From positions 1 to 64,000 of the forward strand of contig PABB01000072.1 of the NCBI GenBank assembly GCA_002702655.1: DNA of 64,000 bases. Direction: 5' to 3'. How positions within the stretch are numbered: the first letter of the stretch is position 1; each line of letters starts with the position of its first letter. The translations under genes and the position numbers were made by a program. The DNA comes from Planctomycetaceae bacterium (lineage in GTDB: Bacteria > Planctomycetota > Planctomycetia > Pirellulales > Lacipirellulaceae). Shown one piece after another: positions 5,402 to 18,716 of the stretch. A model generated the notes under the pieces. It was not told where the DNA came from and searched no databases. It saw only the letters and a list, made by a program, of their open reading frames with translations.

Positions 5402-5410
5402 GCCACAAGG
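5402..5410. repeat. 9-bp direct repeat GCCACAAGG, left copy; the right copy is at 11272-11280
   Basis: Identical 9-mer occurs immediately before the first tRNA-like gene and immediately 5-prime of the terminal tRNA-Asn. Confidence 0.35.
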
Positions 5411-5444
5411 CCCGGTGTCACTGCGACATCGGGCCTTTTTCTTT
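5409..5444 (+). terminator. Rho-independent terminator-like hairpin
   Basis: GGCCCGGTGTCACTGCGACATCGGGCC stem-loop followed by TTTTTCTTT. Confidence 0.5.
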
Positions 5445-5485: not shown

Positions 5486-5557
5486 GGGCTGGTAGCTGAG
5501 ACGGTCTAGCGGCGGTCTGAAGAACCGCAGACGAGGATTCGAGCGCCTCCCGGCCCA
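5486..5557 (+). tRNA. tRNA-Phe(GAA)
   Basis: Acceptor GGGCTGG/CCGGCCC, D stem GCTG/TAGC, anticodon stem GCGGT/ACCGC with loop CTGAAGA. T-loop TTCGAGC with a noncanonical A53.G61 pair. 4-nt variable loop. Confidence 0.5.
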
Positions 5558-5593
5558 CTCTGCGCACCCGGTGCGCGCACTGCGAAACAACAC

Positions 5594-5666
5594 GGCCCGT
5601 TCGACTTCGGGTGAGGTCATCGGTCTTTCAAGCCGATCAGGTAGGGTTCGACTCCCACACGGGTCA
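5594..5666 (+). tRNA. tRNA-Glu(TTC)
   Basis: Acceptor GGCCCGT/ACGGGTC, anticodon stem TCGGT/GCCGA with loop CTTTCAA. T-loop TTCGACT with only a 3-bp T stem. Confidence 0.45.
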
Positions 5667-5739
5667 CTGCAAATCAGAACGTAGCGAAGTTTGGCATCGC
5701 GCTTGGCTGGGGGCCAAGAGATCGTCGGTCGATTTCTTG

Positions 5740-5788
5740 CTACCGCCCTGCGCTCGGCTGACGTTGAGTCAGCCGTGCTCGGTTGCTC
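5740..5788 (+). ncRNA. conserved-flank hairpin element, copy A
   Basis: Flanks CTACCGCCCTGCGC and GCTCGGTTGCTC are identical to copy B at 8799-8847. Between them is a perfect 7-bp hairpin GGCTGAC/GTCAGCC. The stem sequence differs between copies but the structure is kept. Confidence 0.4.
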
Positions 5789-5812
5789 GTTCTGACTTAC
5801 GCAATGACAACT

Positions 5813-5885
5813 CGGGCGGAGGTGCAGATGGGAGCACGCCGGTTTTGGGAACCGGAGGCTCTGGGTTCGACCCCCAGGCGCCCGA
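5813..5885 (+). tRNA. tRNA-Pro(TGG)
   Basis: C1-G72 first pair typical of bacterial tRNA-Pro. D stem GTGC/GCAC, anticodon stem CCGGT/ACCGG with loop TTTGGGA, T arm CTGGG-TTCGACC-CCCAG. Confidence 0.6.
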
Positions 5886-5903
5886 CTGATACGCAAACCA
5901 CGG

Positions 5904-5973
5904 TAGTCGAGGGCTGGTCGCCCCTACCCGGCTGATAACCGGGTCGCGCTGAGTTCGATTCCCTGGGCTACCA
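5904..5973 (+). pseudogene. degenerate tRNA-like, Ile(GAT)-type anticodon arm, with encoded CCA
   Basis: Anticodon arm CCCGG-CTGATAA-CCGGG and a TTCGATT T-loop, but the acceptor and T stems cannot be paired. Ends in CTACCA. Confidence 0.3.
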
Positions 5974-6057
5974 CTCGCATTCAACTTCACAAGCCACGAG
6001 GAACAACACGATGACGATCGTCCGGCGATGTAAACGGATACGCCCAACCCTGAACTT

Positions 6058-6129
6058 GGGGCTGTGGTGTAGCGGCTGCACAGCGGACTTTTAATCCGCA
6101 CGGTGAGGGTTCAAGTCCTTCCGGCCCCA
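6058..6129 (+). tRNA. tRNA-Lys(TTT)
   Basis: Acceptor GGGGCTG/CGGCCCC, D stem GTGT/GCAC, anticodon stem GCGGA/TCCGC with loop CTTTTAA, T arm GAGGG-TTCAAGT-CCTTC. Confidence 0.6.
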
Positions 6130-6133
6130 CTAT

Positions 6134-6207
6134 TGGCGCGTAGCGCAGTGGTGAGAGCGGCGACATTATAAGTCGCACCCTCGGAGGTTCGATTCCTCCC
6201 GCGCCAA
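6134..6207 (+). tRNA. tRNA-Ile(TAT), rare anticodon
   Basis: Perfect acceptor TGGCGCG/CGCGCCA with U1-A72. Anticodon stem GCGAC/GTCGC with loop ATTATAA, giving anticodon TAT. T arm GGAGG-TTCGATT-CCTCC. 6-nt variable region. Confidence 0.5.
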
Positions 6208-6218
6208 CTGAATAACAC

Positions 6219-6291
6219 GGGACTGAGGTGTTAGCGGCAGCATCCCTGGTTCTTACCCAGGCGGGTGAGGGTTCAAGTCCCTCTGGTCCCA
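6219..6291 (+). tRNA. tRNA-Lys(CTT)
   Basis: Acceptor GGGACTG/TGGTCCC, anticodon stem CCTGG/CCAGG with loop TTCTTAC, T arm GAGGG-TTCAAGT-CCCTC. Confidence 0.6.
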
Positions 6292-6380
6292 CTGAGTTTG
6301 ATGTCGGATGGCAAGCACGAGGCGTGTCGCAGCATTGCTCGGCGTGGATGACTCGTAAGGCGTTCGGCGCGAAAAAGGCA

Positions 6381-6530
6381 CTGGTCGTCTAGCGGCGAAG
6401 ACTCCGCTCTCGTACAGAGCAACTGAGGCCGCTGAGCGATAGCGAGGAGGGAGGCCGAAGGCGGTAGTAAGACACTGCTTCGAGTCCGGCCCGGTGCTCT
6501 GCCGTTCTTTGACAACTTACTTCGCATTGC
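6381..6530 (+). other. degenerate tRNA-like segment carrying repeat copy R1
   Basis: Has a D-arm-like GTCT-AGCGGCGA-AGAC and an anticodon-like GCTCT-CGTACAG-AGAGC. No pairing acceptor or T arm. Contains the 49-nt repeat at 6419-6467. Confidence 0.25.
6419..6467 (+). repeat. 49-nt repeat family copy R1 (GCAACTGAGGCCGCTGAGCGATAGCGAGGAGGGAGGCCGAAGGCGGTAG)
   Basis: 45/49 identical to R2 at 8629-8677. A more diverged copy R3 lies at 8955-9004 inside a long tRNA-like element. Confidence 0.6.
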
Positions 6531-6533
6531 TTT

Positions 6534-6604
6534 GCGCCCATGATGTAGTGGCAGCCTTCCTGCTTGCCATGCAGGGTGTGTCGGTTCGATTCCGGCTGGG
6601 CGCA
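6534..6604 (+). tRNA. tRNA-Gly(GCC)
   Basis: Perfect acceptor GCGCCCA/TGGGCGC, anticodon stem CCTGC/GCAGG with loop TTGCCAT, T arm GTCGG-TTCGATT-CCGGC. Followed by a T6 run. Confidence 0.55.
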
Positions 6605-6610
6605 TTTTTT

Positions 6611-6684
6611 CAGGACGTGGGAAAGCTTGGTATTCCGCGTGCTTCGGGCGCACGAGATCGCTGGTTCAAATCCAGCCGTCCTGA
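6611..6684 (+). tRNA. tRNA-Pro(CGG)
   Basis: Perfect acceptor CAGGACG/CGTCCTG with C1-G72, D stem GGAA/TTCC, anticodon stem CGTGC/GCACG with loop TTCGGGC, T arm GCTGG-TTCAAAT-CCAGC. Confidence 0.65.
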
Positions 6685-6692
6685 CTGACTAT

Positions 6693-6767
6693 TGCGGTGG
6701 GTCCTGTGCTGGTACGGGAAGGCGACTGTTAATCGTCGTGACGCAGGTTCGATTCCTGCCTCCGCAG
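6693..6767 (+). tRNA. tRNA-Asn(GTT)
   Basis: Acceptor TGCGGTG/CTCCGCA with one mismatch. Anticodon stem GGCGA/TCGTC with loop CTGTTAA, T arm GCAGG-TTCGATT-CCTGC. Confidence 0.55.
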
Positions 6768-6779
6768 CTCAAACGGACG

Positions 6780-6865
6780 GGCAAGCCAACGGGCGATGGC
6801 AGCTGCCTCGAAAGCAGTCGAGCGCCGAGCGCGCCTTGTGAGTTCGACTACCTCTCCTTCCGCTT
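6780..6865 (+). pseudogene. tRNA-like remnant
   Basis: Anticodon-like arm CTGC-CTCGAAA-GCAG and a T-loop-like GAGTTCGACTACCTC, but no acceptor pairing. Confidence 0.2.
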
Positions 6866-6868
6866 CAC

Positions 6869-6940
6869 GTGCCCTTGACCGAGCGGCCAAGGTGCCAGTC
6901 TTCCAAACTGGATAGGCGGGTTCGACTCCCGCAGGGCACT
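6869..6940 (+). tRNA. tRNA-Gly(TCC)
   Basis: Perfect acceptor GTGCCCT/AGGGCAC, anticodon stem CCAGT/ACTGG with loop CTTCCAA, T arm GCGGG-TTCGACT-CCCGC. Confidence 0.55.
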
Positions 6941-6949
6941 CTCAAGCTT

Positions 6950-7024
6950 TCCGGGGTCGTCGCTGTTGGTAGTGATGCCTGGCCTTGAACCAGGAGTCCG
7001 TAGGTTCGATTCCTACCCCCGGAA
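6950..7024 (+). tRNA. tRNA-Gln(TTG)-like with C33
   Basis: Perfect acceptor TCCGGGG/CCCCGGA, anticodon stem CCTGG/CCAGG with loop CCTTGAA, T arm GTAGG-TTCGATT-CCTAC. Confidence 0.45.
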
Positions 7025-7080
7025 CTCGCGAACCGTCCCCCACATGGGCTGGTCATGGTTCGACAACGCGAGGAGCTTCC

Positions 7081-7680
7081 ATGACCCAATTCCGTGAGAT
7101 ACGAGCCGATTTTGATCGCGACTCGATCGTCGTTTACCAGGCGTACCGTCCAGCCATCGCTGATGCAGCTTTGGAGGCCGGGCGATTCGTTGCTCCGTTC
7201 TCGTTCGGTCGTATGACTTGGATCAAGCCGTCGTTCCTATGGCTGATGGAGAGAAGCAATTGGGCCCGAAAGTCGGGCCAAGAGCGTATCTTGGCCATCC
7301 GCATAAAACGCAGCGGATGGGATTTGGCGTTAAGTGAGGCAGTGCTGACGTGTTTCGAGCCGAGGACTCATGGATCGATCGACCAATGGCGAGAGAAGTT
7401 TGACGAAGCCCACGTCCACGTGCAGTGGGATCCAGAGCGATCAATTCACGGGAAGAAGCTTGAGCATCGGTCGATTCAGGTCGCTATCGGCAGACAAGTG
7501 ATCAGCGAGTACGTGGAAGACTGGATTATCGAGCTAACGGACCTGACGCCACTTGCCAACAAAATCCGCCGACTGTGCGAGGAGGGCCACGCCGACCGAG
7601 GCAAGAGACTCCTCCCGTCGGAGAAACCATACGAGGTGTCGAATGAAACGGCTACACGACTGGCTATGACCGCCAGCTGA
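7081..7680 (+). CDS. DUF4291-like protein embedded in the tRNA array
   Basis: ATG at 7081 preceded by GAGGAG. The VYQAY and MTWIKPSFLWLM motifs match DUF4291 from memory. Stop TGA at 7678-7680, three nt before the next tRNA. Confidence 0.55.
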   Translation: MTQFREIRADFDRDSIVVYQAYRPAIADAALEAGRFVAPFSFGRMTWIKPSFLWLMERSNWARKSGQERILAIRIKRSGWDLALSEAVLTCFEPRTHGSIDQWREKFDEAHVHVQWDPERSIHGKKLEHRSIQVAIGRQVISEYVEDWIIELTDLTPLANKIRRLCEEGHADRGKRLLPSEKPYEVSNETATRLAMTAS

Positions 7681-7683
7681 CAC

Positions 7684-7754
7684 TGCGGGGTCGCGTAACG
7701 GCAGGACGGGGCGCTCTGAACGCCTTGGTGTTGGTTCGATTCCAGCCCCCGCAG
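7684..7754 (+). tRNA. tRNA-Gln(CTG)
   Basis: Perfect acceptor TGCGGGG/CCCCGCA, anticodon stem GGGCG/CGCCT with loop CTCTGAA, T arm GTTGG-TTCGATT-CCAGC. D arm irregular. Confidence 0.45.
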
Positions 7755-7759
7755 CTTAC

Positions 7760-7844
7760 GGAAGTCATCCGGCTGGATGAGGACGCTGTCTTGAAAACAG
7801 TTGGTCGCACCGGCGACTTGGGGATTCGAGTCCCTCGGCTTCCG
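7760..7844 (+). tRNA. tRNA-Ser(TGA), class II
   Basis: Acceptor GGAAGTC/GGCTTCC, anticodon stem GCTGT/ACAGT with loop CTTGAAA, long variable arm TGGTCGCACCGGCGACTT. T loop ATTCGAGT carries one extra nt. Confidence 0.55.
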
Positions 7845-7857
7845 CTCAACTCAACAC

Positions 7858-7930
7858 GGTCCTGTGGCCTAGCGGCAAAGGCAGCTTCCTTACAAGAAGA
7901 TGATCGGTGGTTCGAGTCCACCCAGGACTA
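7858..7930 (+). tRNA. tRNA-Val(TAC)
   Basis: Acceptor GGTCCTG/CAGGACT, D stem GCCT/AGGC, anticodon loop CTTACAA, T arm GGTGG-TTCGAGT-CCACC. Confidence 0.55.
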
Positions 7931-7940
7931 CTGGATAAGC

Positions 7941-7995
7941 GATGAACGATGAACGCGGAACTATGAACGGAGCGTTCAACGCTCATAGTTCATAG
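7941..7995 (+). other. AT-rich repeat/palindrome element between tRNAs
   Basis: Tandem GATGAAC GATGAAC is followed by nested inverted repeats CTATGAAC-GGAGCG-TTCAA-CGCTC-ATAGTTCATAG. Confidence 0.4.
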
Positions 7996-8010
7996 CTCGT
8001 TGTTCCAATT

Positions 8011-8085
8011 GTCCTCGTGGAGCAGCCTGGAGTGCTCGCCTGCCTGTCACGCAGGAGGACGCGGGTTCAAATCCCGCCGGGGACG
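8011..8085 (+). tRNA. tRNA-Asp(GTC)
   Basis: Acceptor GTCCTCG/CGGGGAC, D stem GAGC/GCTC, anticodon stem CCTGC/GCAGG with loop CTGTCAC, T arm GCGGG-TTCAAAT-CCCGC. Confidence 0.7.
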
Positions 8086-8167
8086 CTTTTGATGGCGGAT
8101 TGCGACATTCGCTATGTGCATGGATCTCAATCGGTTGTCGATTCGTGACTCGCATGCCAATAGGAAA

Positions 8168-8244
8168 GGCACGGTACGCAAACAGGAAAAGCGACGAAGC
8201 TCAAACCTTCGTGACGTTTGCGGGTTCGACTCCCGCCCGTGCTA
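8168..8244 (+). tRNA. tRNA-like with Leu anticodon CAA but class-I-like architecture
   Basis: Acceptor GGCACGG/CCGTGCT, 3-bp D stem CGC/GCG with an 11-nt loop, perfect anticodon stem CGAAG/CTTCG with loop CTCAAAC, 8-nt variable loop, T arm GCGGG-TTCGACT-CCCGC. Confidence 0.4.
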
Positions 8245-8259
8245 CTGACCGAGACACAT

Positions 8260-8358
8260 GCGTCGGCTGGGCACTGGCGAGCCGCAGTATTATTTGGAAA
8301 CGCGGGGCTGTAACCCACCCGCTTCCGAGCTATGCAGGTTCAACTCCTGCCCGGCGCA
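8260..8358 (+). tRNA. 99-nt tRNA-Tyr(GTA)-like with an AT-rich insertion
   Basis: Acceptor GCGTCGG/CCGGCGC pairs, T arm GCAGG-TTCAACT-CCTGC is perfect, and the Tyr-type loop CTGTAAC is present. A 17-nt AT-rich insert AGTATTATTTGGAAACG and an irregular anticodon stem disrupt the fold. Confidence 0.35.
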
Positions 8359-8368
8359 CTGACAACAC

Positions 8369-8439
8369 GGCCCGTTGGTCTAGCGGCAGGATGCGAGACC
8401 CTCAATCTCGCGGCGCGGGTTCGATTCCCGTACGGGCTA
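8369..8439 (+). tRNA. tRNA-Glu(CTC) with C33
   Basis: Acceptor GGCCCGT/ACGGGCT, anticodon stem CGAGA/TCTCG with loop CCCTCAA, T arm GCGGG-TTCGATT-CCCGT. Confidence 0.5.
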
Positions 8440-8446
8440 CTGATGC

Positions 8447-8549
8447 AGCCAAGTGGTGGAATAGGCGGGCACCAACCGTAGGTTGGTCGGCGCGACACTC
8501 AGAATGTCGTGCCACTTGTGGCGTGGGAGTTCGACTCTCCCCTTGGCTA
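8447..8549 (+). tRNA. tRNA-Leu(CAG), class II, with a 17-nt hairpin inserted in the D region
   Basis: Perfect acceptor AGCCAAG/CTTGGCT, anticodon arm CGACA-CTCAGAA-TGTCG, variable arm TGCCACTTGTGGCGT, T arm GGGAG-TTCGACT-CTCCC. An extra hairpin ACCAA-CCGTAGG-TTGGT sits between the D region and the anticodon stem. Confidence 0.45.
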
Positions 8550-8558
8550 CTGATTGAT

Positions 8559-8625
8559 GCGGGTGAGCCAGGCTCAGCCGGGCCTCATAAGCCCGGACCG
8601 TCGGGTGCGACTCCCGGACCCGCTA
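8559..8625 (+). pseudogene. degenerate tRNA-Met(CAT)-like
   Basis: Anticodon arm CCGGGC-CTCATAA-GCCCGG. T-loop TGCGACT, with G in place of the conserved U55. No room for a D arm. Confidence 0.3.
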
Positions 8626-8628
8626 CTA

Positions 8629-8677
8629 GCAACTGAGGCCGCCGAGCGATAGCGAGGATGAAGGCCGAAGGCGGTAG
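8629..8677 (+). repeat. 49-nt repeat family copy R2
   Basis: GCAACTGAGGCCGCCGAGCGATAGCGAGGATGAAGGCCGAAGGCGGTAG, 45/49 identical to R1. Confidence 0.6.
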
Positions 8678-8710
8678 CTCACCAAGAACTGCCGCGCAGC
8701 GACGATTGAT

Positions 8711-8786
8711 GACTGGGTACGCAAACTGGAAAAGCGACCAGGTCGAGAGCCTGGTGATTCTGTGGGTTCGACTCCCACCCTAGTCA
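8711..8786 (+). tRNA. tRNA-like with Leu anticodon GAG, class-I-like, paralogue of 8168-8244
   Basis: Acceptor GACTGGG/CCTAGTC, 3-bp D stem CGC/GCG with an 11-nt loop, anticodon stem CCAGG/CCTGG with loop TCGAGAG (C33), 7-nt variable loop, T arm GTGGG-TTCGACT-CCCAC. Confidence 0.4.
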
Positions 8787-8798
8787 CTTCGTGACAAA

Positions 8799-8847
8799 CT
8801 ACCGCCCTGCGCATACATGCCTTTTGGGCATGTATGCTCGGTTGCTC
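8799..8847 (+). ncRNA. conserved-flank hairpin element, copy B
   Basis: Same flanks as copy A. Perfect 11-bp hairpin GCATACATGCC-TTTTG-GGCATGTATGC. Confidence 0.4.
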
Positions 8848-8852
8848 TGAAT

Positions 8853-8925
8853 GATCCCGTGGTCCAACGGCAACGACGCCTGGGTGACAACCAGGAGAGC
8901 GATGGTTCGACTCCATCCGGGATCA
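8853..8925 (+). tRNA. tRNA-Val(GAC)
   Basis: Perfect acceptor GATCCCG/CGGGATC, anticodon stem CCTGG/CCAGG with loop GTGACAA, T arm GATGG-TTCGACT-CCATC. Confidence 0.6.
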
Positions 8926-8929
8926 CTTT

Positions 8930-9055
8930 GGTCTGTAAGTGTTGCGGCCGCACAAGCAAGGGCCGCCGCCGAGCAGTGCGCAGGAAGGAGGCTGGCCCGC
9001 GGTAGCAGAAAACACATAAGGACGAGGGCCGGGTTCAATTCCCGGACACGGACCT
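8930..9055 (+). other. 126-nt tRNA-like element with acceptor and T arm but a roughly 50-nt internal insertion (repeat copy R3)
   Basis: Acceptor GGTCTGT/ACGGACC pairs and T arm CCGGG-TTCAATT-CCCGG is intact. The interior carries the palindrome TTGCGGCCGCAA and an R-family repeat at 8955-9004. Confidence 0.3.
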
Positions 9056-9119
9056 TCAACCGAGCACGCTTGCCCAGAAGGCAAGCGAGCGCAGGGCGAA
9101 AGCAACTGACGAAAATCGC

Positions 9120-9192
9120 GGGCTGGCATGTTCCAAGGGGGCGACTGACTCTTGCAAGGTCGGTGCGAAGGGTTCGATTCCCTTCCGGTCCA
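9120..9192 (+). tRNA. tRNA-Ala(TGC)-like
   Basis: Acceptor GGGCTGG/CCGGTCC with 2 GU pairs, anticodon stem TGACT/GGTCG with loop CTTGCAA, T arm AAGGG-TTCGATT-CCCTT. D stem poor. Confidence 0.4.
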
Positions 9193-9202
9193 CTCACGAC
9201 GA

Positions 9203-9273
9203 GGGCTCATGGTCCAACGGGACGACACCGGCTCGGCAGGTCGGAGATCTGGGTTCGATTCCCAGTGGGTCCA
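9203..9273 (+). tRNA. tRNA-Ala(GGC)-like with C33
   Basis: Acceptor GGGCTCA/TGGGTCC, anticodon stem CCGGC/GTCGG with loop TCGGCAG, T arm CTGGG-TTCGATT-CCCAG. Confidence 0.45.
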
Positions 9274-9277
9274 CTCA

Positions 9278-9568
9278 TCAATCAGGCCAGATGCCGGCGT
9301 CAACGGCGGCTTGGCGATTGTGACCGCAGTCGACTTTGGCGCCATCTATCAGGACTTCAGGATAGTCACCCCGTTCAACATACAGTTGAGTATTGCCATC
9401 AGTCTCAACCATAGCGAACCAAGGCCCTTGATCTGTGTCAGAAACCATCGTTGAAGCGACAAGTTTTTCCTTGGGAAGCATGGTGTAGTCTTCGCCCCAG
9501 GGCTCGATCCATACGATGTGAGGACGAGGACGATCGTTGTAGATCTCGATTGAGGAGACTCGCTGCAT
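9278..9568 (-). CDS. hypothetical small protein (low-GC cargo ORF inside the array)
   Basis: ORF sits in a roughly 50% GC stretch between tRNAs. Start chosen at MQRVSS. No clear SD. Confidence 0.2.
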   Translation of the reverse strand: MQRVSSIEIYNDRPRPHIVWIEPWGEDYTMLPKEKLVASTMVSDTDQGPWFAMVETDGNTQLYVERGDYPEVLIDGAKVDCGHNRQAAVDAGIWPD

Positions 9569-9589
9569 GGCACCAGGATAGCGACTTCG

Positions 9590-9700
9590 AAACACGGAAG
9601 GTAGCCGGATACGGCTCGCCGGGCCAGTTTGCTCGGGCCGTGCGACTCCACAAGGGTCATGTGGGATCAAATCGGGCACCGACGCGCAGCGTTGGTCTAC
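9590..9700 (+). pseudogene. degenerate tRNA-like remnants
   Basis: TGCGACTCC T-loop variant and ATCAAAT loop fragments without a complete cloverleaf. Confidence 0.2.
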
Positions 9701-9729
9701 CTTCCGCTCGCGTTGATCGAATACGACAC

Positions 9730-9801
9730 AGCTCGATGGTGAAACGGACATCATGTCTCGCTTCTAACGAGAGGTTCCAGGTTCGAATCCTGGTCGAGCT
9801 G
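9730..9801 (+). tRNA. tRNA-Arg(TCT)
   Basis: Perfect acceptor AGCTCGA/TCGAGCT, D stem GTGA/TCAT, anticodon stem TCTCG/CGAGA with loop CTTCTAA, T arm CCAGG-TTCGAAT-CCTGG. Confidence 0.65.
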
Positions 9802-9812
9802 CTGAAGAGTAA

Positions 9813-9897
9813 GGAAGGGCAACCCGATTGGCGACGGGACCCGGTTGGAAGCCGGTTGAGCTTCATGGCCTTGAGGGTTCGACTCCCTCTCCTTCCG
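9813..9897 (+). tRNA. tRNA-Ser(GGA), class II
   Basis: Acceptor GGAAGGG/TCCTTCC, anticodon stem CCGG/CCGG with loop TTGGAAG, roughly 15-nt variable arm, T arm GAGGG-TTCGACT-CCCTC. Confidence 0.5.
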
Positions 9898-10519
9898 CTG
9901 GTTTGGTACGACCCTTTCCTGAGCGACTGTGGAAAACACGGAATGGGACAGATGCTACCAAAGAAATCCCAACAGAGATTAACCATATCAATAGCCAGGT
10001 ATGCCACCCGGAGTCCAGGAATCGCCCCCAATAGTCGATAACGCCGTGCTCACGCGACCAGCTTGCATCAGCAATGATGAGCGATGCAGTCACACAACTT
10101 GCCGCCCAACAGCCCAGGAACAACCACCACCCGGACGCCAGAACGCAGATCGCTAGAGGAAGTAGCAAGTTCAAAAGGCAACCAACGACCCAGCCGCCAA
10201 ATCCAAAACCGCGTATGAAAGGGCCAGCCCAATATACGGCCGAGGTCGCAACCAGGAATGCAACTACCGTCGAAACCGACTTTCCAGTCTCCGTTCCTGC
10301 AAACAGCTTTCTCTTGAAACTAACCGATCGAGGATGACACAAGATAGCAATCGCGAGTGCCGGCACAAACCCGATTGCAGAAAACACTGCCGCGATCCAA
10401 GGCGCGTCAGCAACACCTCCCCGAATCCATGACATCGCCACTGAAGTAAACAACCCAAATGCCGCTGCGCACAAGACCGCTTCCGAAGGAGAAAACGACT
10501 TTTGGTTCGAGTTGGCCAT
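9863..10519 (-). CDS. hypothetical multi-pass membrane protein (low-GC cargo ORF)
   Basis: 5-6 predicted TM helices. Roughly 50% GC, against above 60% for the surroundings. The ATG at 10517-10519 is preferred over the upstream TTG. The 3-prime 35 nt overlap tRNA-Ser on the opposite strand. Confidence 0.35.
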   Translation of the reverse strand: MANSNQKSFSPSEAVLCAAAFGLFTSVAMSWIRGGVADAPWIAAVFSAIGFVPALAIAILCHPRSVSFKRKLFAGTETGKSVSTVVAFLVATSAVYWAGPFIRGFGFGGWVVGCLLNLLLPLAICVLASGWWLFLGCWAASCVTASLIIADASWSREHGVIDYWGRFLDSGWHTWLLIWLISVGISLVASVPFRVFHSRSGKGRTKPAEGEGVEPSRP

Positions 10520-10551
10520 GAATCGCAAGTTACCACACAAATGAAGTCTGT

Positions 10552-10617
10552 GGTGTACACGGTACGCACGCCTGCCTGTGAAGCAGGAGGTACGGGTTCG
10601 ATTCCCGTCGGATACCC
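10552..10617 (+). pseudogene. tRNA-His(GTG)-like, degenerate
   Basis: Anticodon arm CCTGC-CTGTGAA-GCAGG and T arm ACGGG-TTCGATT-CCCGT, but a truncated D arm and a poorly pairing acceptor. Confidence 0.35.
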
Positions 10618-10622
10618 CTTAT

Positions 10623-10692
10623 GCGAGTGTGCTCCTGGGAGAGCAGTCAGCCTCCAAAACTGACGAACAGGGTTCGAATCCTTGCGCTCGTG
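10623..10692 (+). tRNA. tRNA-Trp(CCA)
   Basis: Acceptor GCGAGTG/CGCTCGT with 2 GU pairs. Anticodon loop CTCCAAA is closed by GTCAG/CTGAC plus a C.A pair. T arm CAGGG-TTCGAAT-CCTTG. Confidence 0.5.
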
Positions 10693-10696
10693 CTTT

Positions 10697-10784
10697 GCCG
10701 ACGTGGCCGAATAGCTAGGCGCCGGTTTTGCCCCGTCCCTAGATAAAGCAGCGGTTGATGCTGGTGCGACTCCAGTCGTCGACC
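10697..10784 (+). pseudogene. class-II-like tRNA-like with G55 T-loop variant
   Basis: Acceptor GCCGACG/CGTCGAC pairs 6/7. T arm GCTGG-TGCGACT-CCAGT. Anticodon region ambiguous. Confidence 0.3.
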
Positions 10785-10788
10785 CTAC

Positions 10789-10852
10789 ATCTCGATGGTG
10801 TAACGGACCGCACGGGGCTCTCCAAGTCCTGGTTCGATTCCAGGTCGAGATG
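10789..10852 (+). pseudogene. truncated tRNA-like, 64 nt
   Basis: Perfect acceptor ATCTCGA/TCGAGAT, D arm and T arm intact, CTCCAAG loop, but the 3-prime half of the anticodon stem and the variable loop are missing. Confidence 0.3.
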
Positions 10853-10860
10853 CTGCGAAC

Positions 10861-10932
10861 AGCCCGTGAGTGTGCCGGATAGCATGTCAGCTTCCGAAGC
10901 TGTTGGACCAGGTTCGATTCCTGGACGGGCTA
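10861..10932 (+). tRNA. tRNA-Arg(CCG)
   Basis: Perfect acceptor AGCCCGT/ACGGGCT, anticodon stem CAGC/GCTG with loop TTCCGAA, T arm CCAGG-TTCGATT-CCTGG. Confidence 0.6.
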
Positions 10933-10936
10933 CTAC

Positions 10937-11009
10937 GCCTTGCGAGTGTGACGGACGAGCACGGCAGACTTCGAATCTGCAAGACGGGGTTCGATTCCCT
11001 GGCGAGGTA
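10937..11009 (+). tRNA. tRNA-Arg(TCG)
   Basis: Acceptor GCCTTGC/GCGAGGT, D stem GTGT/GCAC, perfect anticodon stem GCAGA/TCTGC with loop CTTCGAA, T arm CGGGG-TTCGATT-CCCTG. Confidence 0.65.
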
Positions 11010-11013
11010 CTTC

Positions 11014-11084
11014 AGCCTGTGAGTGTGTTGGATGCACGCGACCGTGCGAAGGTCGTAGGCCAGGTTCGATTCCTGGACGGGCTG
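11014..11084 (+). tRNA. tRNA-Arg(GCG)
   Basis: Acceptor AGCCTGT/ACGGGCT, D stem GTGT/GCAC, perfect anticodon stem CGACC/GGTCG with loop GTGCGAA, T arm CCAGG-TTCGATT-CCTGG. Confidence 0.6.
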
Positions 11085-11091
11085 CTAATTT

Positions 11092-11162
11092 GACGCTGGA
11101 GCCAGATGGCCAGGCAGCCGGCTGCAACCCGGCCAAAGTGGGTTCGACTCCCACCGGCGTCT
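11092..11162 (+). tRNA. tRNA-Cys(GCA)
   Basis: Acceptor GACGCTG/CGGCGTC, perfect anticodon stem GCCGG/CCGGC with loop CTGCAAC, T arm GTGGG-TTCGACT-CCCAC. Confidence 0.6.
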
Positions 11163-11274
11163 CTTTGTAAGCGAGGTTTTGAAAGCGCTGGGCCAGCGGC
11201 GCCCTCGGCCCCTTTCACCAGGTTGGCCGGGTGTGTTCCGTGGATGGATTGTTACGAAGGCGCGCGAGACCGCC

Positions 11275-11348
11275 ACAAGGTTAGCTCAGTTGGTTAGAGC
11301 ACCAGGCTGTTAACCTGGCTGTCACGGGTTCGACTCCCGTACCACACC
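11275..11348 (+). tRNA. tRNA-Asn(GTT) with canonical body but non-pairing acceptor stem
   Basis: Canonical D arm TAGCTCAGTTGGTTAGAGC, anticodon arm CCAGG-CTGTTAA-CCTGG and T arm ACGGG-TTCGACT-CCCGT. The 5-prime acceptor ACAAGGT pairs with the 3-prime ACCACAC over only 3 of 7 positions. The 9-bp direct repeat abuts its 5-prime end. Confidence 0.5.
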
Positions 11349-11807
11349 GCAGGCTGAAAACCTGCTCCCTACGTGAGGGACCGACGCGGAAGCGTCACCA
11401 TGAAGCCCGAGGGTAGCGGACGGTCGATTGGTCTGCCGCGCGTGAGTGCGAGGCTTTGGCCTAGGCAAGCTCGTAGCGGCAGCACAGACCGGCGCTATGC
11501 AGTGCGTGGATACCGCTTTCACGCACGCTGTGTCCGAAGGTTGTGGAAGCCAAGTGTCGCCCAACGAGCAATGCTCGTGACGGCCTCACCGGTGAAAGCA
11601 ACTGGGAGATACAGCGAACATGACCGCTCAAATTGCACTCCGCGCACGGATGTGTGACCAGGCGAACCAGTTCGCTGCCCGAGGGCCTTTTTCCGTGAAC
11701 CAAGTACAGGCAACCGTCGTCCTGCACTTCCTATACACACCGTTTCTGTATTCGGGGCGGGCAGCCGACCGCCAACCTATCTCGGCTGGAAAGGAGGTAC
11801 ATGCCTC

Positions 11808-13347: not shown

Positions 13348-14529
13348 ATGGTTCAAAAGATCCACGTCAACGTCGGCACGATCGGTCACATCGACCACGG
13401 GAAGACGACGCTTACCACCGCGAACTTGCGCGTGCAGTCCGGGCGCGGCCTGGCCGAGTATAAGTCCTACGCCGAGGTCGCCAAGGGCGGCGTCACCCGC
13501 GACAAGAACAAGACCGTCACGGTCATCACTTCGCACGTGCAGTACGAGACGGAGTCGCGCAGCTACGCGCACGTCGACTGCCCGGGCCACGCGGACTACA
13601 TCAAGAACATGATCACCGGCGCCGCCCAGATGGACGGGGCCGTGCTCTTGGTGTCGGCCGTGGACGGCCCGATGCCGCAGACGCGGGAGCATATCCTGCT
13701 GGCGCGGCAGGTCGGCGTGCCTCACCTGGTCGTCTTCATGAACAAGTGCGACCTGGTCGAGGACCCGGAGTTGCTCGACCTCGTGGAGCTGGAGATGCGC
13801 GAGATGCTCACGCACTACGGGTTCCCAGGAGAGGACGTTCCGTTCGTGCGGGGCTCCGCGCTCTTGGCGCACGACAACCCGGCGGACGCGGAGTCGAGTC
13901 GTTGCATCGGCGAGTTGCTGGACGCGCTCGACACGTACGTGCCTGCCCCCAAGCGGGCGGTCGACAAGCCGTTCCGGATGTCGATCGAGAACGTGTTCTC
14001 GATCGAGGGGCGGGGCACCGTTGTGACCGGCGTGGTCGATCAAGGCCGGATCGCTCCCGGCGACTCGGTCGACATCGTCGGCCTGGCGGACCAGCCGCGG
14101 ACGGTCGTGTGCACGCAGCTCAAGACGTTTCAGGACGTCTTGGAGTCCGCCGAGGCGGGCGACAACGTCGGTTGTTTGCTCCGTGGCGTCGGCCGCGATG
14201 AGGTCGAGCGCGGGCAGGTGATTGTCGCTCCCGGATCGCTCGCGCCGCACACACGGTTCGAGTCGGAGGTGTACGTGCTCGACCAAGGAGAGGGCGTCCG
14301 GCACACGCCGTTCATAAACGGTTACACGCCGCAGTTCTTCTTCCGCACGACGGACGTGACCGGAGAGGTGAGCCTGCTGGGAGGCGCCGAGGTCGCGATG
14401 CCGGGCGACGGCATCAAGCTCGGTGTCCGGCTGCAGAAGCCAATCGCCCTGGATGCTGGCTCGCGTTTCGCGATCCGCGAAGGGAACCGCACGGTTGGTT
14501 CCGGTGTCGTGACGTGTATTATTGAGTAG
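13348..14529 (+). CDS. tuf: elongation factor Tu paralogue with a divergent switch I
   Basis: 393 aa with G1 [24 protein letters not shown] and the EF-Tu C-terminal [10 protein letters not shown]. The switch I/effector region is [15 protein letters not shown] where canonical EF-Tu has [19 protein letters not shown] SD. Not in a str/S10 ribosomal context. Confidence 0.85.
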
Positions 14530-17155: not shown

Positions 17156-17590
17156 ATGGCGCTTGATAAGCGTACGCGCGAGCAGATGCTCGCAATGTGT
17201 GGAGAGATCCACGAGGACGACGGGGTCGACCCCCGCGAATTCTTCAAGTCGGGACGTGGTCCCCGCAAGCAAGACCACAAAGCGCGGCAGCTCTGCCGCC
17301 AGGCGGCGGCGACCTTGGACCAGGTACTCTCTGGAGAGACGGGCGACGATCGACTGGCCTGCCTGCGGGTCGTCTCGGTGCAGCCAGCACCGGACGCATC
17401 GCGGCTGCTGGTCACAGTTGTGGCGACCTGCGCTGCAGTGGACTTCTGTCGAGATGCGACAGCAGCCCACCTGCAAGGGTCCGCAGGGCGATTGAGGACC
17501 GCGGTCGCGGCGGCGATCACGCGTCGCAAGGCGCCGACGCTGGCGTTCGTCTTGCTCGGCCCCGATGGAGAGGAGGCCCAACATGGTTGA
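17156..17590 (+). CDS. hypothetical small protein, translationally coupled to rtcB
   Basis: ORF ends 7 nt into the rtcB start region and has plausible composition. No recognised domain. Confidence 0.4.
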   Translation: MALDKRTREQMLAMCGEIHEDDGVDPREFFKSGRGPRKQDHKARQLCRQAAATLDQVLSGETGDDRLACLRVVSVQPAPDASRLLVTVVATCAAVDFCRDATAAHLQGSAGRLRTAVAAAITRRKAPTLAFVLLGPDGEEAQHG

Positions 17591-18716
17591 GCCACAACTC
17601 GCGGAACTGCAAACCTGGCTCACCGAACCGCTGACGTCGGCCGTCGCGGAGTCCGTATCAAGACTCCGCGCGGCCGAGGGCGTGAAGAAGGTTTGCCTGA
17701 TGCCCGACGTGCACCTCGCTGCAGAGGTGTGCGTCGGCGCTGTGGTCGCTACCGAGGGCGCCCTCTACCCACAAGCGGTTGGAGGCGACATAGGTTGTGG
17801 CATGGCGGCGCTGCGTTTCGACCTCGAAGCCGAAGCGCTTAGCAACGAGCGGCCGGCCGGCGCCGTGCTGGCCGCCCTGTACCGGTCTGTGCCCAGCAAC
17901 AAGCACCGCCAGGCGGTCCCTCTCCCTGAGGCGTTACGCCCCGCCGATCTGAGCGAGCAGACACTGGCTAAGCTCGCCACGCGTGACGGCGCTGTGCAAC
18001 TCGGAACGCTCGGTCGCGGCAACCATTTTCTGGAGTTCCAAGTAGACGAAGCCGGGCAGCTGTGGGTGATGCTGCACAGCGGCTCGCGGGCGATGGGGCA
18101 GGCGATCACCGCTCTCCATGTATCAAACGGAGAGCCAAACCGTTTCGGGCTCCGCGGCCTCGACGCCGAAACCCATCTCGGCGCCGCCTATCTTAAGGAC
18201 GTGGCTTGGGCGAGGAAGTACGCCACGGAGAACCGGTTGGCGATGCTGCGGGCGGTTGAAGAGCTCATGTCTCGGCTCTTCCGAGCCGACGCGGACTGGA
18301 AATCACTCATCCACGCCGACCACAACCACGTGCAGAGAGAGGCTTACGGCGGGCGGAGCTATTTCGTCCACCGCAAAGGCGCTCAATCCGCGGCGGACGG
18401 CGAATCCGGCGTCGTTCCCGGTTCGATGGGCGCCGCCAGTTTCCACACCGTCGGCCGAGGCTGCGCAGCGTCACTCTCGTCCTGTTCCCACGGGGCCGGA
18501 AGGCGCATGAGCCGGACAGAAGCCCGCCAAGAGATCACCAGTAAGTCGTTCCAGCGGCAAGTTGGCGGGCTCTGGTACGATCACCGCCGCGTCGATCGCC
18601 TGCGAGACGAGTCGCCCGGCGCCTACAAGAACATCCGTGAGGTGATGCGCGCCCAGCGCGAGCTCGTCAAAATCGTCCGCAAACTCCGGCCCCTGCTGAG
18701 CTACAAGGGCGTCTAA
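17583..18716 (+). CDS. rtcB: RtcB-family RNA ligase (3-prime-phosphate/5-prime-OH)
   Basis: PDVHLA, GGDIGCGM, GRGNHFLE, HADHNH and SHGAGR motifs. GGAGGAGG SD before the ATG at 17583. Short, about 378 aa form. Confidence 0.85.
   Translation: MVEPQLAELQTWLTEPLTSAVAESVSRLRAAEGVKKVCLMPDVHLAAEVCVGAVVATEGALYPQAVGGDIGCGMAALRFDLEAEALSNERPAGAVLAALYRSVPSNKHRQAVPLPEALRPADLSEQTLAKLATRDGAVQLGTLGRGNHFLEFQVDEAGQLWVMLHSGSRAMGQAITALHVSNGEPNRFGLRGLDAETHLGAAYLKDVAWARKYATENRLAMLRAVEELMSRLFRADADWKSLIHADHNHVQREAYGGRSYFVHRKGAQSAADGESGVVPGSMGAASFHTVGRGCAASLSSCSHGAGRRMSRTEARQEITSKSFQRQVGGLWYDHRRVDRLRDESPGAYKNIREVMRAQRELVKIVRKLRPLLSYKGV

Follow-up and report, generated by a model that had tools for sequence, protein, structure and literature searches.

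The current view of long arrays of tRNA genes (L-arrays) is that they pass between bacteria and keep tRNAs in reserve, to be expressed when translation is under stress. They have been reported as supernumerary, horizontally transferred, pseudogene-prone and rtcB-linked (PMC8421152), and the Planctomycetes are among the phyla listed with them (PMC8421152; Tran et al. 2016, PMC4758250). Here, a 64-kb stretch of DNA (the window) from a marine Pirellulales planctomycete was analysed, which carries an array of this known kind: an L-array, horizontally spread and with rtcB nearby. As in the L-arrays described before (PMC8421152, PMC4758250), dozens of tRNA genes stand at about 7 per kb in an order conserved between distant hosts, protein genes are embedded between them, the neighbourhood is rich in rtcB and translation factors, and pseudogenes as well as frequent insertions and deletions are present. 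It differs in that the same accounts give gain, loss and duplication of whole genes and a small number of pseudogenes, and no intragenic repeat families of 16-50 nt. A literature description of array-restricted micro-repeats that colonise tRNA genes was not found.

Rickettsia palindromic elements (RPEs) are selfish hairpin repeats of 100-150 bp that lie in functional genes. The cyanobacterial small dispersed repeats described by Elhai in 2008 reportedly measure 21-27 nt, and share with the array repeats the short palindromic form, the many copies in both orientations and the lack of coding capacity. Mitochondrial hairpin elements comprise the RHEs of sponges (PMC2800124) and the GC clusters of yeast (PMC4478555). 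Like the array repeats, RPEs and mitochondrial elements are selfish hairpin repeats that enter functional genes, including RNA genes, and are sometimes tolerated; unlike them, they belong to other hosts and other size classes and are not confined to tRNA arrays, and there is no sequence similarity. REP/REPIN sequences (Bertels & Rainey 2011, PMC3116915) resemble the array repeats as very short, imperfect, non-coding palindromes with many copies in both orientations, whose mobility is likewise deduced from presence or absence at orthologous sites. However, REPs are extragenic, genome-wide and tied to RAYT, whereas the array repeats lie inside RNA genes, were found only in arrays, delete target bases and have hypervariable cores, and no RAYT was seen in the window.

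Among intervening sequences, the non-canonical protein-spliced tRNA introns of the Thermoproteales transpose between tRNA genes (PMC4090602, PMC4033280). Like the array inserts, they are short (12-60 nt), related to one another and spread over many tRNA genes and positions, including the D/anticodon junction, the anticodon stem and the T loop; their ligase is RtcB, and an RtcB gene also lies 6 kb from the array in the window. They have one orientation, a bulge-helix-bulge, precise excision and a dependence on EndA, whereas the array inserts occur in both orientations and in a bacterial host, target bases are lost and a bulge-helix-bulge was not found.

Results

A tRNA gene array common to several genomes

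The array and the protein genes in and near it are located in the window as follows:

5486..11343, + strand: long tRNA gene array (L-array), from ARAGORN and the gene order common to related arrays
7081..7680, + strand: DUF4291 gene embedded in the array, in the same slot in L001, L016, L017 and L011
17565..18716, + strand: RtcB RNA ligase gene, 6 kb downstream of the array (context only)

In these 5.9 kb, 29 tRNAs were called by ARAGORN and about 12 further tRNA-derived elements were missed or miscalled, more than the 20 genes and the density of 2 per kb that an L-array requires as a minimum; no tRNAs were called by ARAGORN in the window outside the array. The recurrence across genomes that is characteristic of L-arrays was found as well: the gene order is also present in L001 (Bythopirellula sp. 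OZ245849.1), L005 (Pirellulaceae bacterium BC1.9) and L012-L017, of which L013 and L015 are JGI metagenomic contigs. Between arrays, intact tRNAs are 91-94% identical and spacers about 80%. L012-L015 were recovered from metagenome contigs by a scan with the Leu(CAG) anticodon and variable arms; a scan of metagenome contigs that demanded the D arm and the anticodon arm together gave no matches because of D-loop variants.

Genes for RtcB and RtcA adjoin the L016 array, and a Ro60/TROVE gene adjoins that of L001. The sequence search with DUF4291 gave no relative with a solved structure. A 218-aa ORF inside the array (9863-10519, − strand) is an orphan, and the 158-aa ORF at 9278-9754 (− strand) and the ORFs of the L001 and L012 arrays had no informative matches in Pfam, PHROG or PADLOC. 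Neither a transposase, an HUH nuclease, a homing endonuclease, a RAYT nor a splicing endonuclease was found among the scanned ORFs of the window. On another contig, P0016, an HNH gene is located close to the array. A phage origin was considered and rejected: blastn against phage genomes returned only scattered matches at the level of single tRNAs, and neither the Leu(CAG) anticodon arm nor the C repeat or AB core described below was found in the viral contigs scanned.

The tRNA-Leu(CAG) gene and its insertion

The analysis started from the original prediction that one gene of the array is a tRNA-Leu(CAG) of 103 nt with an intact acceptor, anticodon arm, class-II variable arm and T arm, and with a 17-nt hairpin inserted between the D region and the anticodon stem.

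8447..8549, + strand: tRNA-Leu(CAG) gene, 103 nt, all canonical helices intact, CCA not encoded
8466..8491, + strand: 26-nt block where the ancestral gene had TAGACAC (7 nt, D loop and 3′ strand of the D stem), from orthologue alignment

The identity of the gene, its length and the four intact parts were borne out by direct reading of the helices and by orthologues in related arrays. The acceptor AGCCAAG/CTTGGCT forms 7 of 7 pairs with discriminator A at 8549, the anticodon stem CGACA/TGTCG encloses the loop CTCAGAA with the CAG anticodon at 8500-8502, the variable arm is GCCA-CTTG-TGGC and the T arm GGGAG-TTCGACT-CTCCC. The gene has these features of a class II tRNA-Leu: the 7-bp acceptor, the 5-bp anticodon stem with 7-nt loop, U33, the long variable arm, the 5-bp T stem with GTTCGA loop and the discriminator A73. 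It departs from the rule that nucleotide 26 alone joins the D arm to the anticodon stem in a tRNA of about 85 nt, as 19 extra nucleotides lie between C25 and G26.

Orthologue comparison, which had been proposed as a check, defined the insertion exactly. Insert-free orthologues are present in L001, L005 and L012; they measure 84-85 nt and are near-identical to the gene apart from the insert (first 19 nt, 19/19, and last 60 nt, 58/60, in comparison with L001). The net insertion relative to L001 is 19 nt (8473-8491) instead of 17, and three D-loop bases beside it are also changed (TAGA to CGGG). The 26-nt block contains a 22-nt copy of repeat family C at 8467-8488 (GGGCACCAACCGTAGGTTGGTC). The hairpin was predicted at the right place; its stem has 7 bp and is closed by a GTA triloop (ACCAACC/GGTTGGT, 8471-8487). 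The first two bases of the hairpin double as D-stem 3′ strand, and a CAC within the block re-forms the D stem.

Leu(CAG) was not called by ARAGORN at 8447-8549 and had no match to the Rfam tRNA model RF00005; the tRNA-Sec model RF01852 reached only 17.8 bits against a gathering score of 47. Removal of 17-22 nt in silico made the tRNA-Leu(CAG) call return. Folding had also been proposed as a check. The hairpin can be drawn in a cloverleaf-constrained fold, where it is uninterrupted and followed by a tail of 6 nt. When the 103-nt RNA was folded freely, the minimum-energy structure differed from a cloverleaf (−43.5 kcal/mol versus −35.6 kcal/mol for cloverleaf plus hairpin). Free folding of the L001 orthologue did give a cloverleaf. 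Folding energy decides little about the function of Leu(CAG), because the folding z-score of the RNA is only −2.1 and because free folding can miss true cloverleaves. A bulge-helix-bulge around the insert was absent from both the free and the constrained folds, as read from the folds rather than by a dedicated motif search.

Contigs from ERZ17090024, TARA SAMEA2623741 and Logan ERR1726863 are 100% identical to the window over Leu(CAG) and the array. The homologous insertion with the same junctions is present in L013 and L015, with paired changes in the hairpin between the window and these two contigs, which also have a second insert in Leu(CAG) that removed the T-stem 3′ strand. Since the CAC of the repeat rebuilds the D stem and the other helices survive, the gene in the window could still yield a tRNA whose fifth arm projects from the junction of the D and anticodon arms; that it is crippled rather than fully functional is judged the somewhat likelier state.

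Interrupted genes and repeat copies elsewhere in the array

Further copies of repeats and further damaged tRNA genes were located in the window:

5740..5787, − strand: AB copy B1, inverse, inside the T loop of the tRNA-Pro(GGG) remnant 5675-5796
6378..6498, + strand: tRNA-Thr(CGT) remnant with AB copy A1 (6418-6467), T-stem 5′ strand lost, insertion common to L016
8260..8358, + strand: tRNA-Tyr(GTA) gene with family-E repeat 8284-8305 (GCAGTATTATTTGGAAACGCGG), from orthologue alignment
8628..8677, + strand: AB copy A2 in the spacer after a tRNA-fMet-like gene, identical to the Thr(CGT) copy of L016
8799..8846, − strand: AB copy B2 in the Leu(GAG)/Val(GAC) spacer
8930..9055, + strand: tRNA-Thr(GGT) remnant with a 63-nt block (8955-9017) that includes AB copy A3 (8955-9005)
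9057..9102, + strand: AB copy B3 in the spacer between Thr(GGT) and Ala(TGC), diverged, with a hairpin core of a third kind
9674..9697, + strand: second family-C copy (GGGCACCGACGCGCAGCGTTGGTC) in the tRNA-Ser(GCT) remnant 9596-9708, in place of the T-stem 3′ strand
10697..10783, + strand: tRNA-Thr(TGT) remnant, anticodon interrupted by an inverse family-E copy (10731-10754)
10789..10853, + strand: tRNA-Arg(CCT) remnant with an 8-nt deletion in the anticodon arm

In Tyr(GTA), the AT-rich insert of 17 nt that had been noticed before was found as a net insertion at 8289-8305, which separates positions 29 and 30 in the 5′ strand of the anticodon stem and forms a 17-nt bulge there; one D-stem pair is gone as well. 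The element at 8930-9055 had been described as carrying an insert of roughly 50 nt between an intact acceptor and T arm. The size was right, as the 63-nt block replaces about 10 nt (net +53), but the element is not an intact tRNA with an insert: it is a remnant, because it has neither an anticodon nor a 5′ strand for the anticodon stem, and no single excision restored a tRNA call. The Thr(TGT) remnant was miscalled by ARAGORN as an 89-nt tRNA-Gln(ttg) at 10697-10785. Among the array genes, Thr(GGT), Thr(CGT), Thr(TGT), Ser(GCT), Pro(GGG) and Arg(CCT) appear to be dead and beyond rescue. The Leu(GAG)/Val(GAC) spacer with AB copy B2 measures 65 nt in the window versus 3-5 nt in other arrays, and the family-C copy at 9674-9697 is identical to copies in L013 and L015. 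The one Rfam match near the inserts, a weak match of the Ser(GCT) repeat to CRISPR-DR20 (24 bits versus 42), was taken as chance.

Families of very short repeats

By sequence comparison, the repeats of the arrays fall into at least four families, AB, C, D and E. Family C measures 22-33 nt and has conserved arms (GGGCACCRAC...GTTGGTC) around a core that is variable yet always self-complementary; each copy folds into a hairpin, and four distinct cores were seen. Against an expectation of 0.00, the window has two occurrences of the pattern GGGCACCRAC-N3-20-GTTGGTC, and six further copies lie in tRNA genes of L013 and L015, three of them inverted. Family AB (about 50 nt, AGCAACYGAG...GGCGGTAG) has six copies in the window in both orientations and others in L016 and L017. 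The A-type and B-type copies are not two families, as both termini are common to them in opposite orientations; these termini are not inverted repeats. Family D is a perfect palindrome of 14 nt (CCCGGCGCGCCGGG) with four copies in L015, and family E (about 22 nt, CCAGT-N8-GRAAC-GSGG) has 16 copies across six arrays, again in both orientations.

Most copies are located inside tRNA genes and some in spacers, and in L015 at least a quarter of the array genes are hit. Identical sequences of 24 nt and 50 nt were found at unrelated sites and in different genomes. Full-length copies of C, D and AB outside arrays numbered 0 in 104 kb of non-array DNA, searched next to 30.6 kb of array DNA, and clear copies of all four families appear confined to arrays within the approximately 135 kb examined, 64 kb of which are from the source genome. 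As is typical of REP, REPIN and MITE sequences, the repeats are short palindromes with many copies in either orientation. They are not extragenic and genome-dispersed like REP/REPIN in the limited genome space covered (104 kb of non-array DNA), and they have neither the terminal inverted repeats with target-site duplication nor the RAYT or other transposase of MITE/REP sequences; target bases are deleted instead.

The original prediction had offered mini-insertions, inactivated copies and processing substrates as possible explanations. The first two are both supported, and nothing was found in support of the third. Beyond that prediction, the inserts are recognisable as members of repeat families with further copies, in both orientations, in spacers, other tRNA genes and related arrays, and they take the place of target bases instead of only adding to them.

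Comparison of insertion alleles

A single contiguous excision in silico restored the tRNA call in 18 of 26 insertion alleles (Leu(CAG), Tyr and 16 others); the remaining 8, including Thr(GGT), Ser(GCT) and Pro(GGG), were not rescued. Target bases are replaced at the insertions and stems are often destroyed. The tRNA flanks of insert-bearing alleles differ by 3-13% and are as conserved as intact tRNAs, and family-E inserts at the same site differ by 25-41%. For Leu(CAG), the flanks of the three insert-bearing alleles differ by 3.3%, versus 6-8% in intact tRNAs and about 20% in spacers. The idea that Leu(CAG) is an old pseudogene is weakened, as its flanking tRNA sequence has diverged no more than intact tRNAs. 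Neutral divergence in situ alone was rejected as the origin of the family-E inserts, as divergence is greater among same-site copies than among spacers, and copies from different sites are up to 82-87% similar, which is as high as for same-site copies. Identical junctions were found in more than one array at Ile 28/29, Pro(CGG), Pro(TGG), Leu(TAA) and the T loop of Leu(CAG).

Group I introns are, to our knowledge, the only intervening sequences established so far in the tRNA genes of bacteria. They exceed 200 nt, have a P1-P9 catalytic core and interrupt the anticodon loop, whereas the array inserts measure 17-63 nt and match no Rfam intron or other RNA family even at E≤10, and that of Leu(CAG) sits at the D/anticodon junction; the early judgement that the inserts are too short for group I introns was upheld. 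The fixed orientation of protein-spliced introns was not found either, with families C, AB and E present in both orientations, nor were bulge-helix-bulge borders in the Leu(CAG) folds examined.

Discussion

The observations are best explained by DNA-level insertion of hairpin repeats and a piecemeal erosion of the tRNA genes of the array, to which a probability of about 0.68 is assigned. The occurrence in both orientations, the lost target bases and the alleles that excision does not rescue point to insertions at the DNA level and not to introns. The repeats would be copied into new places of the array, each displacing a few target bases, either by a hairpin-recognising enzyme or by microhomology-guided template switching or break repair as candidate routes. 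In Leu(CAG), such an event would have swapped 7 nt of the D loop and D-stem 3′ strand for 26 nt with a family-C copy, and the new CAC strand supplied by the repeat for the D stem may be due to chance or to selection. The outcome would be the piecemeal erosion of a dispensable tRNA set. Several observations count against this explanation. Conserved flanks with divergent inserts are the expected pattern where a gene is still under selection and its intervening sequence is tolerated or removed, and fit DNA-level erosion only if the insertions are both recent and recurrent, or if arrays recombine often. Repeated hits with identical junctions at several sites are unexpected for random insertion, no transposase, HUH nuclease or homing endonuclease was found in the window, and the paired hairpin changes in Leu(CAG) could reflect selection on an RNA arm.

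It is also possible, though unlikely, that the inserts are kept in the mature RNA as extra arms or bulges and that the tRNAs still work, as decoders or as decoys or sponges for tRNA-cleaving toxins. In favour of this, Leu(CAG) keeps every canonical helix with a D stem rebuilt by the repeat, its flanks are less diverged (3.3%) than intact tRNAs (6-8%) or spacers (about 20%), its hairpin is preserved through paired changes, and the inserts of Tyr and Ile(GAT) can be drawn as bulges with the anticodon stem pairs intact. A role as sponges has already been proposed for L-array tRNAs (PMC8421152). However, the same families plainly wreck T stems, D stems and anticodons elsewhere and occur in both orientations and in spacers, the second insert of L013 and L015 takes the T-stem 3′ strand of Leu(CAG) itself, and cloverleaf plus hairpin is about 8 kcal/mol less stable than the minimum-energy fold. 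Nor do we know of a working bacterial tRNA in which a helix sits at the 25/26 junction.

Scars of site-specific DNA cleavage, for example by an array-associated homing endonuclease, with short templated filler that makes the filled alleles immune to re-cutting, are a quite improbable source of the inserts. The use of the same sites with identical junctions and different filler in several arrays, the loss of target bases and the palindromic cores, which are expected from snap-back synthesis, would fit such scars, as would the HNH gene near the P0016 array and the link of homing endonucleases to cyanobacterial L-arrays (PMC8421152) and to the T4 tRNA cluster (PMC2330249). On the other hand, the recurrence of the same 24-nt and 50-nt sequences in different genomes and at sites unrelated to one another indicates copying from an element already present and not fresh filler, and no endonuclease gene was found in or beside the array of the window.

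There is a slender chance that the inserts are the first protein-spliced or otherwise excised intervening sequences of bacterial tRNAs, that is, mobile hairpin cassettes in a stress-inducible array whose linked RtcB rejoins the RNA. In a weaker form of this idea, the cassettes would stay in the mature RNA as selected arms, and the array tRNAs would resist tRNA-cleaving toxins or act as decoys for them. Excision by an endonuclease with rejoining of the halves by the neighbouring RtcB is in itself very improbable. RtcB, with RtcA or with Ro60, adjoins three of these arrays, the tRNA call returns on excision in 18 of 26 alleles, Leu(CAG) and Tyr among them, and fast-evolving inserts lie between conserved flanks. 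The positions of archaeal non-canonical introns, which we take to be the D/anticodon junction, 28-30, the anticodon loop and the T loop, are similar to those of the inserts. Against this, the two orientations mean that the RNA would differ between copies, the deletion of target bases means that excision would not rebuild the original tRNA in 8 of 26 alleles, spacer copies exist, the bulge-helix-bulge is absent from free and cloverleaf-constrained folds, no splicing endonuclease was found among the scanned ORFs of the window, and the RtcB linkage is already accounted for as tRNA repair in L-arrays (PMC8421152). If splicing were true, bacterial RtcB would gain a splicing role like that of archaeal and eukaryotic RtcB.

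An assembly or sequencing artefact or a chance hairpin, which a metagenomic source and the repetitive nature of tRNA arrays might suggest, is refuted by three independent assemblies that are 100% identical over the array, by the homologous insertion with the same junctions in two JGI contigs and by the expectation of 0.00 for the repeat pattern.

With DNA-level insertion as the preferred explanation, L-arrays can be colonised from within by their own families of hairpin repeats of 16-50 nt, and these repeats would be a concrete route for array decay and diversification. Standard tRNA finders undercount or misname array genes, as in the case of the false tRNA-Gln at 10697-10785. It is a puzzle that interrupted genes are as conserved as intact ones and that the same sites are hit repeatedly. 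The answer may be a site-directed DNA process or, less likely, tolerance or removal at the RNA level beside an RtcB ligase, and either would be relevant to tRNA biology, RNA repair and very small mobile DNA.

The tRNA gene array and its neighbourhood

A dense run of tRNA genes occupies positions 5486-11343 (+) of the window; 29 tRNAs were called by ARAGORN, with concordant Rfam results, and about 12 more tRNA-like units marked by T-arm motifs were missed by both. The array, with unchanged gene order, is common to Bythopirellula sp. OZ245849.1 (L001, 40 clean tRNAs), Pirellulaceae bacterium BC1.9 (L005) and several metagenome contigs (L012-L017); Leu(TAA) and Leu(TAG) are missing from the window array. 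The nearest relatives of the array-encoded DUF4291 protein (7081-7680) belong to Pirellulales (Aeoliella, Blastopirellula, Bythopirellula), and its exact sequence was also found on contigs of three other marine metagenome assemblies. These are 100% identical to the window over the array, including the insert in tRNA-Leu(CAG), which therefore is not an assembly artefact. The DUF4291 gene (+) lies between Gln(TTG) and Gln(CTG), occupies the same slot in five arrays and is missing from the two JGI metagenome contigs L013 and L015; an ADP-ribosyltransferase-like fold was recently predicted for this family (PMC12522546). The opposite-strand ORFs at 9278-9754 (-) and 9863-10519 (-) showed no family match, and the latter (218 aa) matched only itself among 5.8 billion proteins searched. 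In L005, Pro(GGG) and Pro(TGG) have been fused into one gene (249-323) by loss of the DNA that separated their T arms, which illustrates how adjacent tRNA genes of an array can recombine.

Genes downstream (3') of the array
13348-14529 (+), EF-Tu paralogue
17156-17590 (+), RbfA-like gene
17565-18716 (+), RtcB
18818-21981 (-), McrBC pair
25025-30538 (+), 1837-aa helicase-nuclease (AAA_11/12, MTES_1575, WGR)

Together these genes resemble an island for translation, RNA repair and defence. [quoted passage not shown] The window array, together with the downstream EF-Tu paralogue, RbfA-like gene, RtcB and McrBC, matches this description.

Possible leaders, spacers and unusual tRNA-like units

A strong terminator-like hairpin at 5407-5437 (+), with 13 bp followed by TTTTTCTTT and a T-run to 5447, lies about 40 nt 5' of the first tRNA and is kept with its flanks in L001, L005, L013, L015 and the related locus L011; a role as attenuator or leader in the control of array transcription is possible. 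A conserved micro-ORF (6011-6049 onward, +) between Ile(GAT) and Lys(TTT), extending into the latter, is preceded by a Shine-Dalgarno-like AGGAG and has counterparts at L001 9027, L005 437, L015 9305, L016 6944 and L011 786. Its product, M-[ST]-[IT]-V-[RL]-R-C-K-R-I-R-P-T..., is a possible leader peptide. The window also has two additional spacers (+), each about 80 nt long: 7932-8010, at the slot of a small ORF, Leu(TAA) and Leu(TAG) in other arrays, includes GATGAACGATGAACG and the inverted repeat CTATGAAC...GTTCATAG, and 8087-8167, ahead of Leu(CAA), has no counterpart in the other arrays.

The tRNA-fMet-like gene at 8559-8625 (+) has the anticodon CAT, a 1/72 mismatch, a D arm with a loop of only 3 nt (GAGC-CAG-GCTC) and the T loop TGCGACT. 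It is kept in L001, L005, L012 and L013 and was missed by ARAGORN and RF00005, the sole match being weak (Tymo_tRNA-like, 27 bits). Directly after the last array gene, the unit at 11279-11343 (+), with anticodon loop GTT, matches RF00005 (54.8 bits) at model positions 5-66 only and thus lacks a proper acceptor stem. Similar T-arm units follow the arrays of L001 (~13837) and L013 (~5261), and since a Ro60/TROVE gene adjoins that of L001, the unit could be a Y-RNA-like tRNA mimic. The tRNAs with Leu anticodons CAA, GAG, TAA and TAG (window 8168-8245 and 8711-8787; L001 11231-11384) are only 74-79 nt long and lack the long variable arm that normal bacterial tRNA-Leu, a class II tRNA, possesses. 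Leu(CAG) alone is class II, and the short ones are putative leucine acceptors. The diverged tRNA-Ala(TGC) at 9120-9192 (+), missed by ARAGORN and only ~80% identical to its orthologues, retains G3:U70 and has the anticodon loop CTTGCAA and an aberrant D arm.

Structure of tRNA-Leu(CAG) and its orthologues

In tRNA-Leu(CAG), 8447-8549 (+), all helices of the original prediction were read in the sequence: a perfect 7-bp acceptor stem with discriminator A, a 5-bp anticodon stem (loop CTCAGAA, anticodon CAG), a 4-bp variable arm and a 5-bp T arm (loop TTCGACT). The extra hairpin between the D region and the anticodon stem was likewise confirmed; it has 7 bp (ACCAACC-GTA-GGTTGGT), and the net insertion is 19 nt, not the 17 nt claimed. 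The first two bases of the hairpin also serve as the D-stem 3' strand. The gene was unrecognised by ARAGORN and RF00005, and the class II-like RF01852 scored 17.8 bits.

Leu(CAG) is an ordinary class II tRNA of 84-85 nt in L001, L005, L012 and L014, to which the window gene is identical at 19/19 5'-terminal and 58/60 3'-terminal positions. Alignment to these orthologues placed CGGGCACCAACCGTAGGTTGGTCGGC in the middle instead of TAGACAC (26 nt for 7), with CAC within the new block re-creating the D-stem 3' strand. When 17-22 nt were removed in silico, ARAGORN called tRNA-Leu(CAG) again. L013 and L015, in which the local gene order is that of the window (Tyr ahead of Glu-CTC), have exactly the same insertion junctions around a different hairpin, ACCGACGC-GCA-GCGTTGGT, and carry a second insertion that takes out the T-stem 3' strand.

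Families of miniature hairpin repeats

The family-C pattern GGGCACCRAC-N3-20-GTTGGTC has two matches in the window, against 0.00 expected: one within Leu(CAG), the other in tRNA-Ser(GCT) (9674-9697), where it takes the place of the T-stem 3' strand. Six more copies, three of them inverted, were found in L013 and L015, in Pro(GGG), Ser(CGA) (two), Leu(CAG) (two) and Leu(GAG). All fold as hairpins in which a constant outer stem encloses one of four cores, each of them fully paired.

The Tyr-like gene at 8260-8358, predicted to hold a 17-nt insert, is a Tyr(GTA) orthologue with a net gain of 17 nt (8289-8305). Its insertion, GCAGTATTATTTGGAAACGCGG, belongs to family E, splits the anticodon-stem 5' strand at positions 29/30 and costs one D-stem pair. 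Sixteen copies of family E (CCAGT-N8-GRAAC-GSGG) were found in six arrays, in either orientation, with further hosts being Ile(GAT), Pro(CGG), Pro(TGG), Arg(CCT), Phe, Ala(GGC), Leu(TAA), the T loop of Leu(CAG) and Thr(TGT) of the window.

The element at 8930-9055 is a Thr(GGT) orthologue. The predicted insert of about 50 nt stood in size (a 63-nt block, net +53) but not as a plain insertion, since the block replaces the anticodon and the anticodon-stem 5' strand. It contains a copy of family AB, with termini AGCAACYGAG and GGCGGTAG, and five more lie in the window.

Further family-AB copies in the window
5740-5787, inverted, in the T loop of Pro(GGG)
6418-6467, in Thr(CGT)
8628-8677, spacer
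8799-8846, inverted, spacer
9057-9102, spacer

The inverted copies conserve the frame and enclose three different perfect hairpins. The Thr(CGT) insertion is common to L016, and another copy lies in L017. Family D, a 14-nt perfect palindrome (CCCGGCGCGCCGGG), replaces tRNA arms only in L015, where at least 12 of ~40 tRNA genes bear some insert.

Family-D copies in L015
10358-10371, arm replaced in Gln(CTG)
10723-10736, arm replaced in Leu(TAG)
11446-11459, arm replaced in Val(GAC)
11648-11661, arm replaced in Ala(TGC)

Probable insertion into DNA and candidate modes of copying

In a census of the window and eight related loci (30.6 kb array and 104 kb non-array DNA), full-length C, D and AB copies were all within arrays, and the degenerate E motif was likewise enriched there. 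The inserts nearly always displaced a few target bases and often removed one stem strand; all three Thr genes of the window are interrupted, and its Arg(CCT) has an 8-nt deletion. Each single contiguous deletion of 4-74 nt was made in silico in 26 insertion alleles, and success was scored as a tRNA call that had the correct anticodon. The call was restored in 18 alleles, including Leu(CAG) and Tyr, and never in the other eight, among them Thr(GGT), Ser(GCT) and Pro(GGG) of the window. The occurrence in both orientations, the spacer copies, the loss of target bases and the alleles that excision cannot rescue point to DNA-level insertions rather than introns. Group I introns are rejected, as predicted, the inserts being far too short and matching no Rfam family; the folds computed for Leu(CAG) show no bulge-helix-bulge arrangement at its insert.

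Among known elements, the inserts most resemble other minute palindromic repeats: REP/REPIN, cyanobacterial small dispersed repeats, Rickettsia palindromic elements and the hairpin elements of mitochondria. In contrast to REPs, the array repeats sit inside genes, appear confined to arrays and lack target duplications, and no transposase was seen in the window. A hairpin-recognising nuclease and microhomology-guided template switching are the two candidate routes of copying; short repeat/target matches, e.g. CAC and GTCGG, are visible in the orthologue alignments.

Divergence and functional status

The tRNA-homologous flanks of insert-bearing alleles are not more diverged than intact tRNAs (differences of 3-13% and 6-10%, respectively). 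Same-site family-E inserts differ by 25-41%, above the spacers (~20%), and E copies at different sites are up to 82-87% identical, equal to same-site copies; at seven sites, two or more arrays carry inserts whose junctions are the same. Taken together, these patterns suggest either that inserts have recently and repeatedly entered, or been replaced at, preferred sites, or that arrays often recombine with one another. For Leu(CAG) the difference between flanks (3.3%) and insert (14%) is not significant (p = 0.075). The combined pattern would not arise from long-standing pseudogenes. It also leaves some room for the minority readings in which the mature RNA tolerates certain inserts or has them removed.

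In favour of a functional Leu(CAG), no helix is broken, the D stem has been rebuilt, the D loop has kept its length and the flanks are conserved. Against it stand three changes in the D loop, 19 helix-forming nt at the 25/26 hinge, non-recognition by the tRNA models, a minimum-energy fold that competes with the cloverleaf, and the destructive second insert in sister arrays. Leu(CAG) is predicted, with a probability of roughly 0.6, to be inactive or crippled as a decoder.

No account of micro-repeat families living inside tRNA arrays and remodelling tRNA genes was found in the searchable literature. Arrays of this type, and their association with rtcB, are already known; the miniature hairpin repeats seem to occupy a new niche and to behave unusually in it.
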